A stretch of DNA of 64,000 bases, from assembly GCA_964610095.1 (NCBI GenBank), contig CAZSUT010000002.1:27027-91026 (forward strand), read 5' to 3'. Numbering within the stretch: the stretch's first letter is position 1; each line of letters opens with the position of its first letter. The notes under the pieces were generated by a model, which was not told the DNA's origin, ran no database searches, and saw only the letters and a list, made by a program, of their open reading frames with translations. The translations under genes and the position numbers were made by a program. This DNA comes from an uncultured Nitrospirales bacterium (GTDB lineage Bacteria; Nitrospirota; Nitrospiria; Nitrospirales; NS-4). Shown one piece after another: positions 43,942-57,540 of this stretch.

Positions 43942-45426
43942 TTACGGCAGCAGCATGGCGACCGGCGCGGCGCCGAGATTGGAGAAGATCGTCGTCGCCG
44001 CCACGGTGTATTCGATAAAGGGCTTGGGGTAGATACCCAGGATCAGCGTACCGGCCAAGCCGACGTAGATGACGGCCTGGAGCGCGCCGGAAACTTTGAT
44101 AGGCGTGGGATCGGCCGGCTCGCTGATGTACATCTTCTTCACCACGACCAGGTAATAGTACAGCGAGATCACGATGCTGATCAGCCCCACCACGATCAGA
44201 GTGTAGAGACCCTCCTTGATCGCCGCGACGAACAGGTAGAGCTTGCCGATAAAGCCGGCCAGCGGCGGCACGCCGGCCAGCGAGAGCAGGAAGACCAGCA
44301 TGGTGAAGGCCAGGAACGGCGAGCGCCGGTTCAGGCCGCTGTAGTCTTCGATCTCGTCGCTGTTGGTGGTCTGGCTGAAGGCAATCACGACCGCGAAGGC
44401 CCCCAGATTGGCGAACAGGTAGGTGAGCAGGTAGAACAGGACCGAATCGGCGCCCATCCGCGTGCCGGCGGCCATCCCGATCAGGATGTTCCCGATCTGG
44501 GCGATCCCGGAGTAGGCCAGCAGCCGTTTGATGTTCCGCTGCGCAATCGCCACGATGTTCCCGTAGAGCATGGAGAGCATCGCCATGCCCATCAACAACC
44601 ACACCCACTGCGGCTTGAACGCCGCGAGCGTCGAGAAGAACATCCGCAGGAGGATAGCGAACGCGGCGCCCTTGGGCGCGATCGACAGGAAGGCCGTGAT
44701 GGGGGTCGGCGCTCCCTGGTACGTGTCGGGGATCCAGGAGTGGAGCGGCACGGCCCCGATCTTAAAGCCCAGGGCCGCGAAGATCATCAGCCAGCCGAGC
44801 ACCAAGCTGGGCGTCATGGCAGCCGTTCCCTGGGCGATCGTGGGGAAGATGAACGTCCCGGTTTCCCCGTAGACCAGGCTGGTCCCGTAGGCCAGCAGTG
44901 CGGCGGCGAAGACCCCCAGGATGAAGAACTTGAGCCCCGCCTCGCTCGAGCGGAGGTCGTCGCGGAGGTACGCCACGAGCACGTAAAAGCCAAACGTGCT
45001 GAACTCCACCGTGACGAAGACGGACAGTAGGTCGTTGGCCGAGGACATGAACATCATGCCCAGCGCCGCCATCATGACCAGGAAGTAATACTCGCCCTTG
45101 AAGAAGCTGAACCGGCCGACGTAGTCGATGGAGGACAAGAGGACGAGCAGGCTCGCGCCGACCACGAGGATCTTGAAGAACAGTGCCAGCCGGTCCAAGA
45201 CGAACATCCCTTTGAAGAGGACCCCGTTCGTCCCCTCGGCGTAGTACCACAGCAGGAACCCCAGGGCGACGCCCATGCCCGCGACGCTGAGCCCGGCGAT
45301 GGCGCGCTGGGACATGCGGGGCATCAGGAAGTCCACGCACAGCACGACGCAGATCCACAGCGTGACCCAGAGCTCCGGGAGCATCAGGAGGAGGTCGCTG
45401 AGGGTGAGGTTGAGGTCGAAGGTCAT
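43942..45426 (-). CDS. nuoN: NADH-quinone oxidoreductase subunit N
   Basis: 494-aa antiporter-like polytopic protein in the last position of the nuo locus, with a 4-nt overlap with nuoM. Confidence 0.9.
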   Translation of the reverse strand: MTFDLNLTLSDLLLMLPELWVTLWICVVLCVDFLMPRMSQRAIAGLSVAGMGVALGFLLWYYAEGTNGVLFKGMFVLDRLALFFKILVVGASLLVLLSSIDYVGRFSFFKGEYYFLVMMAALGMMFMSSANDLLSVFVTVEFSTFGFYVLVAYLRDDLRSSEAGLKFFILGVFAAALLAYGTSLVYGETGTFIFPTIAQGTAAMTPSLVLGWLMIFAALGFKIGAVPLHSWIPDTYQGAPTPITAFLSIAPKGAAFAILLRMFFSTLAAFKPQWVWLLMGMAMLSMLYGNIVAIAQRNIKRLLAYSGIAQIGNILIGMAAGTRMGADSVLFYLLTYLFANLGAFAVVIAFSQTTNSDEIEDYSGLNRRSPFLAFTMLVFLLSLAGVPPLAGFIGKLYLFVAAIKEGLYTLIVVGLISIVISLYYYLVVVKKMYISEPADPTPIKVSGALQAVIYVGLAGTLILGIYPKPFIEYTVAATTIFSNLGAAPVAMLLP

Positions 45427-47027
45427 GGGAGGAGCCCGCTCCCCGTTTGGGTCACCACCGGCGCCACTTCCATGATCCTGGCCAGGATCGGATTCACGCC
45501 CGAGCGGATGACGTCCAGCATCCGGCCCGGGAGCAGCCCGAACGTGATGCTGCTGAAGATCATGATCAAGAGCGGCACGCGATCCACAAAGGCCTCGGCG
45601 TCATGGGCGTGGTGGCCCAATTCGCTCAACTGCCCGTAGAAAACTCCGCGCATCATGCGGAAGAGATAGGCCATCGTGAGCACGATGCCCAGGACCGCGA
45701 TGACGGTCTGGACGGGGTACTTGGCCCAACTCCCCAGCACAATCATGACCTCGGCCACGAAGTTCACCGTCCCCGGCATGCCGATGGACGCCATGCAGGC
45801 GATGAGGAAGCAGCCGGCCACGAAGGGCATCTTGGCGACCAGGCCGCCGAGCGAGGGGATGTCACGCGTGTGGGTCTGGTCGTAGACCCAGCCGGCCATG
45901 GCAAACAGCATCCCCGTGGCCAGCGCGTGCGCGAACATATAGAGAACGGCGCCGCTCAGGCTGATGTAGTCGAGCGCGGCCATGCCGAGGAACACGTAGC
46001 CCATGTGGCTGGAGCTGCTGTAGCCGATCACGTACTTCGTGTCTCTGGCGTAATAGGCGACATACCCGCCGTACAGGATGCTGAAGATGCAGAGGACGGC
46101 GGCGATGGGCATCAGGTCGCGCGTGGTGTCCGGCAGGATCTGGAAGCACGTGCGGATAATCGAGAAATGGCCGAGCTTCATCAGCACGCCGGCGTGCAGC
46201 ATGCTGGTGGCTGCGGGCGCCGCTGCGTGGCCGACCGGCGACCACGAGTGCAGCGGCCAGAGGGGCGCGATCGAGGCGAATCCGAAGAAGCACAGGAGCC
46301 AGATGATCGTCGCCAGCTTCCCCTCGAAATGGGCCTTCTCGGCCAGCACCGGGATCTCGAAGGTATTGAGGCCGGAGGCCTTATAGATCAATAGTATTCC
46401 CAGCAGCGCCACGACCGCGCCGGCCGACAGGAACAGCGTCAGCTTCATCGCGGCGTATTCCTTGCTGTTGCGCGCGAAGTTCAGAATGAATCGGGGCGCG
46501 TCGGGCCGCTCCCATTCATCCGCGTTGGTCGTCTCAAGATAGCCCTTCGTGTGGCTGCCCCAGACGCCCAGCAGCGGATACATGGGGATCACCGACATCT
46601 CGTAGAAGAAGTACAGGAAGAAGAGGTCCAGCGACACGTAGACCCCGATGGTCGCACCGGCCAGGATCAGCAGGAAGGCGTAGAACTCCTTGGTCCGGTC
46701 CTTGATGTGCCAGGAGATGAACACCCCGGCAAAGAGGAGGATCGAGGAGGCGAGCACCATGGGGACCCCGATCCCGTCCACGCCGATGTAGAACTGGATC
46801 CCGAGTTGCTCCGACCAGAAGTACTTCTGCTGGAACTGGTACCCACCCTTCTGCCAGTCGAAGGCCAAGAGCAGGTAGAACGACGCGAAAAACGAGATGC
46901 CTGCGAAGAACGCCGCCAACTGGCGCACCAGCAGCGGGTGGCGGTTCGAGACCCACGGGGTCGCCAGCACGGCGGCTCCCACGAACGGGGCGAACAGGAT
47001 GACGCCCAGCAGGTAGCTTTCAGTCAT
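45423..47027 (-). CDS. nuoM: NADH-quinone oxidoreductase subunit M, divergent second copy
   Basis: 534-aa Mrp/ND4-type antiporter-like subunit (YIGVDGIGVPMV..., WPLHSWSPVGHAAAP). It contains an insertion (GSHTKGYLETTNADEWERPDAPRFILNFARNSKE) that is absent from the adjacent copy. Confidence 0.85.
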   Translation of the reverse strand: MTESYLLGVILFAPFVGAAVLATPWVSNRHPLLVRQLAAFFAGISFFASFYLLLAFDWQKGGYQFQQKYFWSEQLGIQFYIGVDGIGVPMVLASSILLFAGVFISWHIKDRTKEFYAFLLILAGATIGVYVSLDLFFLYFFYEMSVIPMYPLLGVWGSHTKGYLETTNADEWERPDAPRFILNFARNSKEYAAMKLTLFLSAGAVVALLGILLIYKASGLNTFEIPVLAEKAHFEGKLATIIWLLCFFGFASIAPLWPLHSWSPVGHAAAPAATSMLHAGVLMKLGHFSIIRTCFQILPDTTRDLMPIAAVLCIFSILYGGYVAYYARDTKYVIGYSSSSHMGYVFLGMAALDYISLSGAVLYMFAHALATGMLFAMAGWVYDQTHTRDIPSLGGLVAKMPFVAGCFLIACMASIGMPGTVNFVAEVMIVLGSWAKYPVQTVIAVLGIVLTMAYLFRMMRGVFYGQLSELGHHAHDAEAFVDRVPLLIMIFSSITFGLLPGRMLDVIRSGVNPILARIMEVAPVVTQTGSGLLP

Positions 47028-56596: not shown

Positions 56597-57148
56597 TCAG
56601 GCCTTCACCGCCTCCGGCGGCTTCTTGTAGAACACGCTCCGCTGCATGATCTGCTCCTGGAGCTTGAGGATGCCGTCGAACAGGGCCTCGGGCGTGGGCG
56701 GGCAGCCCGGCACATACATGTCTACAGGGATGAACCGATCGACCCCCTGCACGACGCTGTAGCTGTCGTAGATGTTGCCGGAGGTCGCGCACGACCCCAT
56801 CGCGATCACGTAGCGCGGCTCCGGCATCTGATCGTAGATTTTCCGGATCACCGGCGCCATCCGCACACATACCGTGCCGGCCACGATCATGAGGTCGGAC
56901 TGCCGGGGCGACGCTCGAAAGACGCCGGCGCCGTACCGATCGATGTCATAGCGCGAGGAGACCGCGGCGATCATTTCGATGGCGCAGCAGGCCAGCCCGA
57001 AGGTCATCGGCCAGAGCGACCCCTTGCGGGCCCAGTTGACGGCCTTCTCCAGCGTGGTCAGGATGATCCCCGAATCCCCGTCCTTCTGGTGGCCCCGCGC
57101 GACCTGAATGAGATTCAGCGCCAGGTCGTTCTTCCCCGTCAGTCCCAT
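56597..57148 (-). CDS. nuoB: NADH-quinone oxidoreductase subunit B
   Basis: [23 protein letters not shown] and [11 protein letters not shown]. The start is set to M38 at 57148, giving a 10-nt overlap with nuoA. Confidence 0.9.
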
Positions 57149-57540
57149 TCCAGCGCCCCTTTCTTCCAGGCATAGACATAACCGACGACGAACAGCGCGA
57201 TGAAGATCAACATCTCCACCATGCCGATCACGCCGATCCGGTTGAACGCGATGGCCCACGGGTACAGAAACACGATTTCAATGTCGAAGATCACGAACAG
57301 CATCGCGATGATGTAGTAGCGGACCGGAAACGGCATCCGCGCATCGGAGAAGGGTTCGCTCCCGCACTCGTACGGGCTGAGCTTTTCCGGGTCAGGCAGT
57401 TTGGGCTGGAGAAAGTGACTCAGGACCAGCGTGCCTGCCCCGAACGCAAACGCCACCCCGATGAACACCAGGATCGGGAAATAATTCGAGAGATAGGACA
57501 GCAGATGCGCTGTACCGTTCACTTTTTCGCCCCCTAACAC
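57139..57540 (-). CDS. nuoA: NADH-quinone oxidoreductase subunit A
   Basis: [12 protein letters not shown] and [22 protein letters not shown] start (an alternative GTG is at 57522). Confidence 0.85.

Follow-up and report, generated by a model that had tools for sequence, protein, structure and literature searches.

A complex I operon with two nuoM genes and without nuoE, nuoF and nuoH in an uncultured Nitrospirales bacterium

What kind of complex I is encoded by an operon that keeps a NuoG homologue without the NuoE/NuoF module for oxidizing NADH, carries two NuoM-type genes, and has no nuoH? Such a locus occupies positions 43942-57540 of a 64,000-nucleotide (nt) stretch of contig CAZSUT010000002.1 (assembly GCA_964610095.1), which derives from an uncultured Nitrospirales bacterium; this whole stretch is referred to below as the window. 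A first-pass annotation, made from the sequence alone, had singled out the combination as odd and linked it to the '2M'-type complex I described from Nitrospirota. The link was right, and the combination is real but has already been published: the locus is almost certainly the known Nitrospira-type 'clade 3' 2M complex I operon, designated CI_1 in Nitrospira moscoviensis. We suggest, with a probability of roughly 0.8 for the explanation as a whole, that this clade 3 2M operon encodes an enzyme that carries out reverse electron transfer driven by the proton-motive force, with its NuoH subunit supplied in trans.

The operon consists of 12 contiguous open reading frames (ORFs) on the minus strand, identified by Pfam as NuoA-B-C-D-G'-I-J-K-L-M1-M2-N, where G' denotes an enlarged NuoG homologue (Table 1), and tblastn with the Escherichia coli subunits bore out this gene order as first read from the ORFs. 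The absence of nuoE, nuoF and nuoH had been argued from gaps of 13 nt between nuoD and nuoG' and 18 nt between nuoG' and nuoI, and both distances proved correct. As no gap in the operon exceeds 22 nt, and the L/M1, M1/M2 and M2/N pairs overlap by 4 nt, there is no space for a hidden gene. A Pfam scan of 56 selected ORFs, taking in all those of at least 210 amino acids (aa) over the 64 kb, identified no NuoH, NuoE or NuoF domain, and searches of the whole window in six frames with E. coli NuoH, NuoE and NuoF (tblastn) gave a best E value of 0.4. The operon also ends inside the window, being bordered upstream by a divergent OmpA-like gene and PriA, and downstream by a TIG-domain ORF and RNase D. 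The canonical 14-subunit arrangement, in which the NADH-flavin mononucleotide (FMN) module NuoE/NuoF and NuoH are encoded with the complex, is found neither in the operon nor in the window. A scan of the operon for promoters and terminators returned counts no better than those from shuffled sequences.

According to papers citing Chadwick et al. 2018, and as far as those papers relay it, the 2M type is reportedly recognized by two nuoM-type genes and by a NuoL whose lateral helix (HL) contains a large insertion. Both traits are present here: there are two NuoM-type genes, making four antiporter-like subunits in all, and NuoL has an HL insertion. Within the 2M type, the Nitrospira-type clade 3 operons lack nuoE, nuoF and nuoH and have an enlarged nuoG homologue (PMC6606698); correspondingly, the present locus has none of the three genes and harbors an 897-aa G' between nuoD and nuoI. 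According to a comparative study from 2025, every cultivated Nitrospiraceae and UBA8639 genome encodes a 2M complex (PMC12342949), and further reports match the architecture of the locus (PMC8115632, PMC10579370, PMC12324825). The architecture has already been described (Mundinger et al., Bayer et al.) and is ordinary for a Nitrospirales lineage. The clade 3 copies of N. moscoviensis (CI_1), N. marina (its 2M copy) and Candidatus Nitrospira bockiana share with it the order A-B-C-D-G'-I-J-K-L-M-M-N, separate NuoC and NuoD, two NuoM, an HL-extended NuoL, an enlarged NuoG, the lack of nuoE, nuoF and nuoH, and PriA and OmpA flanks; in the complete Ca. N. bockiana genome (OZ224215.1, 326-340 kb), the gene order is identical and PriA and OmpA again lie upstream. 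Nitrospira sp. UBC2 (CP092081.1) is another carrier of the operon. Compared with Nitrospirales orthologues, the proteins are 65-94% identical and there is no architectural difference, while the Nitrospira copies differ from the present locus in sequence (~66% identity to Nitrospira spp.) and in a lineage-specific secreted-protein ORF that here lies upstream of nuoA.

The relatives of G' are found at 98-92% identity in metagenomes and in metagenome-assembled genomes (MAGs) labelled "Nitrospirales bacterium", and at ~66% identity in Nitrospira species, and NuoL follows the same pattern; the best matches of both proteins are all from Nitrospirales, at 65-98% identity and with identical synteny. 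A survey using one genome per GTDB species gave 460 relatives of G', and taxonomy was taken from the best 80 of these. Those 80 are all Nitrospirota and nearly all are labelled Nitrospirales, Nitrospiraceae or Nitrospira, with two labelled otherwise, and the closest among them are the soil MAGs NS_8, NS_1 and NS_3 (92-94% identity). Judged by these identities, the source lineage is a soil-type member of the Nitrospirales outside Nitrospira proper.

The order D-G-I-J-K-L-M1-M2-N recurs in 81 of 81 related loci, as far as their contigs extend (tblastn annotation), and none of the 81 has a NuoH, NuoE or NuoF homologue within 10 kb (tblastn). A set of the missing genes adjoining in the same transcription unit, which the first-pass annotation had named as what would overturn its reading, was thus found neither here nor in the related loci. 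Purifying selection is strong on each of the twelve genes, the ratio of nonsynonymous to synonymous substitution rates (dN/dS) being 0.04-0.20 for each in comparisons with two relatives. These data bear on the idea that the operon is the decaying remnant of a 14-gene nuo operon that has lost E, F and H. While three core genes are indeed missing relative to the canonical operon, the 12 ORFs are intact, translationally coupled and constrained at the dN/dS values just given, the architecture is present in 81 species-level genomes, and CI_1 of N. moscoviensis is transcribed above the median (PMC6606698), so that, in effect, selection and conservation refute decay.

The first-pass annotation had further taken the 668 aa of NuoL as a sign that the subunit is lengthened. 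The length by itself is not diagnostic, and we rejected it as evidence of an HL extension, because canonical NuoL proteins can be equally long, with 664 aa in Sinorhizobium meliloti and 658 aa in Legionella. The lengthening itself nevertheless stands: a MAFFT alignment with four canonical NuoL, chosen via tblastn against plasmids, and with the N. bockiana NuoL places a 24-residue insertion in the linker between transmembrane helices (TM) 15 and 16, which corresponds to HL, between a VIDG-like and an (I/V)NG motif, and so in HL rather than in loops. This linker has ~108 aa here, whereas that of E. coli has ~74 and those of S. meliloti and Legionella have ~84. At 1.5 Å per residue, the 24-34 extra residues would add 36-51 Å to HL, and since the canonical HL of ~110 Å spans three antiporter-like subunits, the gain corresponds to about the width of one such subunit. 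In an AlphaFold2 (AF2) model of NuoL, residues 559-632 form a continuous helix that is followed by TM16 at 641-666, which weakly supports a helical conformation of the insertion; the mean predicted local distance difference test score (pLDDT) is 69 and falls below 50 over HL, as is to be expected when the partner subunits are absent. The insertion belongs to the size class of the 26-residue insertion in MrpD2 of Ca. Manganitrophaceae, which has been likened, for both its length and its position, to the one found in the 2M NuoL of Nitrospira (PMC9040806). An origin of the HL insertion by internal duplication was also considered (phmmer placed Thermus residues 533-549 on two segments of the query) and rejected, the similarity being too weak by eye.

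That two ND4-type genes lie in tandem, the second divergent and with an insertion, was likewise borne out. For both M1 and M2, the best E. coli match is NuoM (1e-78 and 2e-66, respectively; tblastn), ahead of NuoN and NuoL. Both score above the NDH_I_M cut-off of NCBIfam, and the TM5-TM6 loop of NuoM2 has 33 residues (158-190) as against 6 in M1 and 11 in E. coli NuoM. The charged residues on which proton channels depend had been proposed as a check on both copies, and here the two differ. NuoM1 has the full canonical TM5/TM7/TM8/TM11/TM12 set, with E151, K243, H250, K272, H329 and E414 corresponding to E. coli E144, K234, H241, K265, H322 and E407, and keeps these residues in ~65 orthologues. 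NuoM2 retains most of the set (E143, H260, K284, H341, H367 and E426), but at the position of E. coli K234 the TM7 lysine is replaced by Ile253 (FASIAPLWPLH vs FAVKMPVVPLH). The replacement is shared by ~60 of 60 Nitrospirales NuoM2 orthologues; isoleucine was seen in 60 of 65 matches, and the five with lysine are probably matches to the paralogue. In NuoN, E141, K222, K252 and K395 are all kept, as seen in the E. coli alignment and in orthologues.

The lysine of TM7 is reportedly essential in E. coli NuoM. Its loss from NuoM2 could be taken to mean that the second copy is a pseudo-subunit, which the first-pass annotation had allowed for, but we rejected this outright form of the idea in view of the conservation across orthologues and of dN/dS values (0.06-0.12) that lie below those of M1. 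On the alignments, NuoM2 is best described as a conserved, modified module that departs from the canonical Glu/Lys pair. Departures at this position are not confined to it: in an alignment of 128 sequences (5 NuoM references and the 123 full-length nearest 50%-cluster representatives found by searching 1.84 billion cluster representatives), the TM7-Lys position is I, L, W, F, S or E in 36. A literature search found no earlier description of the loss of the TM7 lysine from NuoM2, which is no proof of novelty. As a separate observation, one NuoM-like protein without the lysine (P0251) is encoded in an unrelated cluster with four antiporter-like genes (locus L008; ENA ERZ25039515 contig_97037, 1282-13279). 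This cluster, from an unrelated lineage, reads nuoA-nuoH-nuoJ(split)-nuoK followed by the four antiporter-like genes and several small unknown ORFs, with no adjoining nuoB, nuoC, nuoD or nuoI.

NuoG' has the Pfam domains Fer2_4, NADH-G_4Fe-4S_3, Fer4_Nqo3, Molybdop_Fe4S4, Molybdopterin and Molydop_binding, and in a search of PDB sequences it matched FdsA-type formate dehydrogenases (FDHs) over its full length (9wxb_B, 1.5e-121; Rhodobacter capsulatus 6tg9_A, 1e-118) and true NuoG proteins at 1e-70 to 1e-45, so that its sequence resembles FdsA-type FDH more than true NuoG. It falls under both NCBIfam cut-offs, that of Fdh-alpha (472 < 666) and that of NuoG (TIGR01973; 361 < 470); its N-terminal Fe-S domains resemble those of NuoG, whereas the C-terminal half is like that of FDHs. 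The AF2 model of G' has a mean pLDDT of 59, with the N-terminal 290 residues below 50, and its top Foldseek matches are the alpha subunits of NAD-dependent FDHs, a ranking that we treat as corroboration only; the JGI name for the protein is also formate dehydrogenase alpha.

The iron-sulfur ligands of G' are invariant. They comprise those of a 2Fe-2S cluster, an N5-like H/C3 set, two CxxCxxCxxxC motifs and an N7-like 4Fe-4S set in the molybdenum (Mo) domain, amounting to motifs for one 2Fe-2S and four 4Fe-4S clusters. The second ferredoxin-type motif is lost in E. coli NuoG, so that the 4Fe-4S clusters of G' outnumber those of classical NuoG by one. The additional cluster is the one that forms the bridge to the N7 equivalent in FDHs and hydrogenases. 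The FdsA proteins of R. capsulatus (6TG9_A) and Methylobacterium extorquens (7VW6_A) have in common with G' the full-length domain architecture and all five Fe-S motifs, but G' sits between nuoD and nuoI and lacks the residues on which formate dehydrogenase activity depends, namely a Mo/W-ligating cysteine or selenocysteine accompanied by a histidine, and a catalytic arginine. The Mo-ligand Cys386 of FDH corresponds to Gly371 of G' (codon 53714-53716; ARYGHLN vs ARVCHSP), with His387 kept, and the catalytic Arg587 to Pro565 (NALPEEANEQG vs NPLRGQNNVQG).

Could G' nevertheless be an active Mo/W-bis(pyranopterin guanine dinucleotide) (bisPGD) enzyme, making the complex a substrate:quinone oxidoreductase for formate or another substrate, as was once tentatively annotated for Kuenenia NUO-2? 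The full-length FdsA-type likeness, the Foldseek result and the JGI name all speak for it, as do the conserved look of several pterin-contacting motifs (GENP, DGTFTN.E and N.QG..DMG) and four extra invariant cysteines in the Mo domain, and some Mo-bisPGD enzymes, reportedly arsenite oxidase among them, have no protein ligand to Mo. We nonetheless judge it very unlikely, given that the position of the Mo-ligand Cys/SeCys is glycine in 113 of 113 orthologues, that none of the 113 has arginine at the catalytic position (Pro or Thr instead), that the DPR motif is degenerate, that the protein stays below the Fdh-alpha cut-off, and that mean column conservation is 0.77 in the Mo domain as against ~0.90 in the Fe-S domains. 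The four extra cysteines of the Mo-like domain (C527, C559, C622 and C859) are invariant in 111-113 of 113 orthologues and are missing from FdsA and FdhF; three of them lie on segments that presumably line the FDH pterin pocket, and together they may form an extra metal site.

Every complex-I-like enzyme characterized to our knowledge (Nuo, NDH-1, Fpo, Mbh/Mbx, Ech and Hyc) has a NuoH homologue. In the partners of NuoH encoded here, the quinone-site and E-channel residues are intact: NuoD aligned with E. coli NuoCD keeps both histidines of GPQHPSTHG, the tyrosine of DRLDY and the aspartate of DIGAM; NuoB keeps the four cysteines of cluster N2, in CC, GSCATSG and PGCPP; and the two glutamates of NuoK, the D/E of NuoA and the tyrosine of NuoJ are all in place. 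Considering these intact residues together with the presence of a NuoH homologue in every known enzyme of this kind, NuoH is probably supplied in trans from a canonical nuo operon at another site in the genome. Nitrospira genomes also contain canonical nuo operons that include nuoH (PMC6606698, PMC12342949), and for N. moscoviensis two nuoH genes are listed, both in canonical operons, of which the CI_2 copy is expressed.

A complex truly without NuoH would have to possess a novel membrane interface or quinone site, or else be a quinone-free redox-driven or ferredoxin-linked ion pump. The lack of nuoH from the operon in all 81 loci is in line with this, as is the fact that no orphan nuoH is listed for N. 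moscoviensis. Such a complex would, however, depart from the composition of every enzyme of this kind characterized so far while conserving the NuoD quinone site, N2 and the NuoA/J/K E-channel residues, in a group whose Nitrospira members also carry canonical nuoH operons, and we regard it as highly improbable.

Taking NuoH to be supplied in trans, we propose the following mechanism for the clade 3 2M enzyme, largely in line with a published hypothesis. The L, M1, M2 and N subunits would be joined by the lengthened lateral helix of NuoL and, together with the E-channel, would translocate ~5 H+ per 2 electrons. Run in reverse by the proton-motive force, the enzyme would pass electrons from (methyl-plasto)quinol to N2 in NuoB, on to N6a/b in NuoI, and along the NuoG' chain of Fe-S clusters to an acceptor of low potential. 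With its Fe-S ligands invariant and the catalytic Cys and Arg of FDH gone, NuoG' would serve in this scheme as an electron wire. The acceptor would most likely be ferredoxin, reached possibly through a separately encoded NuoF-like protein, and would feed the reductive tricarboxylic acid (rTCA) cycle; an orphan nuoF, accompanied by a ferredoxin gene, shows very high expression in N. moscoviensis (PMC6606698). For the direction and the partner, quinol to ferredoxin, we put the chances at about even.

Several points weigh against this proposal. The midpoint potential of methyl-plastoquinol is ~+58 mV (PMC12324825) and that of ferredoxin -420 to -500 mV (PMC3578206), and by a rough calculation the reduction of ferredoxin by quinol needs 0.96-1.12 eV per 2 electrons, whereas five H+ give 0.75-0.90 eV at an assumed proton-motive force of 150-180 mV; to make up this shortfall, the reactant ratios would have to be favourable or the acceptor less negative. 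The copy of the PDB that was searched contains no 2M enzyme, and the best matches there of NuoM2 and NuoL are canonical complexes. The direction, the stoichiometry and the partner have been put forward in the literature as hypotheses. Without its TM7 lysine, NuoM2 may make for a fourth module that does not pump canonically, and since many motifs that contact bisPGD look conserved, G' could bear the cofactor.

An alternative is a mainly forward mode, in which a low-potential donor, either reduced ferredoxin or electrons passed on by a NuoF-like or hydrogenase-like partner when the cells grow on H2, formate or storage compounds, would reduce quinone while ~5 H+ are pumped per 2 electrons, so that the energy yield is maximized. 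This would face no energetic shortfall. Complex I is reversible in principle; non-autotrophs, Chloroflexi among them, also possess 2M complexes, for which additional energy conservation was proposed there (PMC7117926), and Nitrospira has alternative low-potential metabolisms (PMC12324825). On the other hand, the rTCA cycle of the Nitrospirales needs reduced ferredoxin, for which no other reducing system has been identified there, and CI_1 is expressed during pure nitrite-oxidizing growth, when no low-potential donor is available (PMC6606698). Weighing these, we think forward operation rather unlikely.

Comparison with better known enzymes shows what sets the locus apart. The E. coli Nuo and Thermus thermophilus Nqo complexes have homologous A, B, C, D, G and I-N subunits, with the quinone-site, N2 and proton-channel residues in common. 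Compared with this canonical 14-subunit enzyme, the present locus lacks NuoE/F, hence any FMN/NADH site, and its operon is without NuoH. Its antiporter-like subunits number four, the HL linker is longer by 24-34 aa, NuoM2 is without the TM7 lysine, and G' exceeds E. coli NuoG by one 4Fe-4S motif and by a complete C-terminal Molydop_binding domain. Cyanobacterial and chloroplast NDH-1 and Campylobacter Nuo also have no NADH-oxidizing module and use a one-electron low-potential partner (ferredoxin or flavodoxin), but both keep NuoH (NdhA), and NDH-1 has no NuoG either; neither, as far as we know, combines two NuoM with an FDH-like NuoG. The NUO-2 complex of Nitrospina gracilis and Ca. Kuenenia stuttgartiensis (Lucker et al. 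2013) has likewise been proposed to be a reverse complex I from quinol to ferredoxin, and its NuoG2, with N1b, N4, N5, N7 and one additional 4Fe-4S, has the same inventory as the cysteine motifs of G', but it keeps nuoH, nuoE and an FMN-less NuoF2 with extra clusters, and a second NuoM is not described there (PMC3578206). Extra antiporter-like subunits with matching HL insertions are also found in Complex_I_3 of Ca. Manganitrophaceae (five pumps), the rhizobial 'green' complex I and the Chloroflexi 2M complex. The first of these has two MrpD in place of NuoL (PMC9040806), the rhizobial complex also has two MrpD instead of NuoL and differs in composition and order, and the Chloroflexi 2M has nuoBCDI encoded separately and a fused NuoCD (PMC7117926).

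Three features of the complex invite a more speculative view. One NuoH, encoded only in the canonical operon, may be shared by two complex I isoforms and so be a moonlighting core subunit. The TM5 glutamate of NuoM2, with no TM7 lysine beside it, would have to pair across a subunit interface, for example with Lys395 of NuoN, in a modified coupling step. The bridging 4Fe-4S cluster kept by the FDH-derived G' would connect the N7-like cluster to the main chain, and the former Mo site may have turned into a new metal site or low-potential port through which electrons reach ferredoxin. That a shared NuoH, modified coupling in NuoM2 and a converted Mo site should all apply together seems rather improbable.

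Table 1. The complex I operon and other features of the window.
Feature	Coordinates	Strand	Evidence or remarks
nuoA (ND3)	57139..57540	-	Pfam Oxidored_q4 3e-41; FDxE motif conserved
nuoB (PSST, cluster N2)	56597..57148	-	Pfam Oxidored_q6, 6e-29; overlaps nuoA stop by 10 nt
nuoC (30 kDa), separate from nuoD	56097..56594	-	Pfam Complex1_30kDa 5e-44
nuoD (49 kDa, quinone-site subunit)	54840..56090	-	Pfam Complex1_49kDa 2.5e-115; NCBIfam NuoD 536 > 459 bits
nuoG' (897 aa, enlarged, FdsA-like NuoG homologue)	52133..54826	-	Six Pfam domains
nuoI (TYKY, clusters N6a/N6b)	51524..52114	-	Pfam Fer4 family, two 4Fe-4S motifs; tblastn E. coli NuoI 3e-26
nuoJ (ND6)	51000..51521	-	Pfam Oxidored_q3 4.5e-36; Tyr of IIxYAGA kept
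nuoK (ND4L)	50675..50977	-	Pfam Oxidored_q2 2e-27; both membrane Glu (E. coli E36, E72) kept
nuoL (ND5), 668 aa	48655..50661	-	Pfam Proton_antipo_N + Proton_antipo_M; passes NCBIfam NuoL equivalog cut-off
NuoL HL-linker insertion, residues 591-614, AVVAVEQVTDLNAAVSTWFEKYVI	48820..48891	-	MAFFT alignment
nuoM1 (ND4-type)	47024..48658	-	Pfam Proton_antipo_M; NCBIfam NDH_I_M 521 bits
nuoM2 (ND4-type, divergent)	45423..47027	-	Pfam Proton_antipo_M; NCBIfam NDH_I_M 418 bits
nuoM2 TM5-TM6 loop insertion	46458-46556	-	
nuoM2 Ile253 codon	46269-46271	-	
nuoN (ND2)	43942..45426	-	Pfam Proton_antipo_M; best E. coli match NuoN 1e-63
164-aa ORF	57871-58365	-	Signal-peptide-like N-terminus
IPT/TIG-domain protein	43351-43815	-	Small, secreted
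RNase D	41601-43157	-	
Polysaccharide/O-antigen-type biosynthesis cluster	1-20000	-	
tRNA-Arg(acg)	25163-25238	+	
Sir2-family ORF as called	25177-25971		
CrtC-like carotenoid hydratase or lipocalin protein	26985-28133	+	
tRNA-Leu(cag)	37930-38016	+	
Beta-eliminating lyase	38720-40126	+	Tryptophanase or tyrosine phenol-lyase type
DsrE/DsrF-like protein	40941-41486	-	
tRNA-Leu(gag)	62726-62809	-	

Some starts in the mechanical ORF list need revision. The nuoA gene probably begins at GTG 57522, preceded by AGGGGG resembling a ribosome-binding site, which would give 127 aa, the length of N. bockiana NuoA. The longer nuoB and nuoC ORFs of that list are over-extended; nuoB probably starts at ATG 57148, with AAAGGGG before it, and nuoC probably at GTG 56594, giving 165 aa as in N. 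bockiana.

The 164-aa ORF lies ~330-350 nt upstream of nuoA and has no Pfam or NCBIfam match. It is carried by 12 related Nitrospirales loci, with 69-90% aa identity in the closest six, and gave no tblastn match in the other loci examined. The IPT/TIG-domain gene follows directly on nuoN, and the TIG-domain and RNase D pair is likewise found after nuoN in loci L013, L015 and L019.

Farther away, the long polysaccharide cluster encodes a flippase, glycosyltransferases, a DegT aminotransferase, a pyruvyl transferase, epimerases, a UDP-glucose dehydrogenase, a C-methyltransferase and a sugar transferase, and is followed by a NusG-like gene. The GC content drops to 0.48-0.50 at 1-2 kb and 6-10 kb, as against 0.60-0.65 elsewhere in the window, and these dips suggest that the low-GC polysaccharide segment was acquired horizontally. 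The tRNA-Arg gene overlaps the called start of the Sir2-family ORF, so the Sir2 gene must start further downstream.

As a locus, then, the operon is another example of a documented architecture. The isoleucine of NuoM2, the loss of Cys and Arg from G' alongside its bridging cluster, the extra cysteines of G' and the intact residues of the NuoH partners could aid the design of experiments, and if its coupling step is indeed modified, NuoM2 without the TM7 lysine would serve as a natural experiment for the model in which Glu/Lys ion pairs underlie proton pumping. So far, the 2M complex I is the only candidate identified for the reduction of ferredoxin for CO2 fixation in Nitrospira, the most widespread nitrite oxidizers, and its mechanism bears on the nitrogen and carbon cycles as well as on how complex I couples redox chemistry to pumping.

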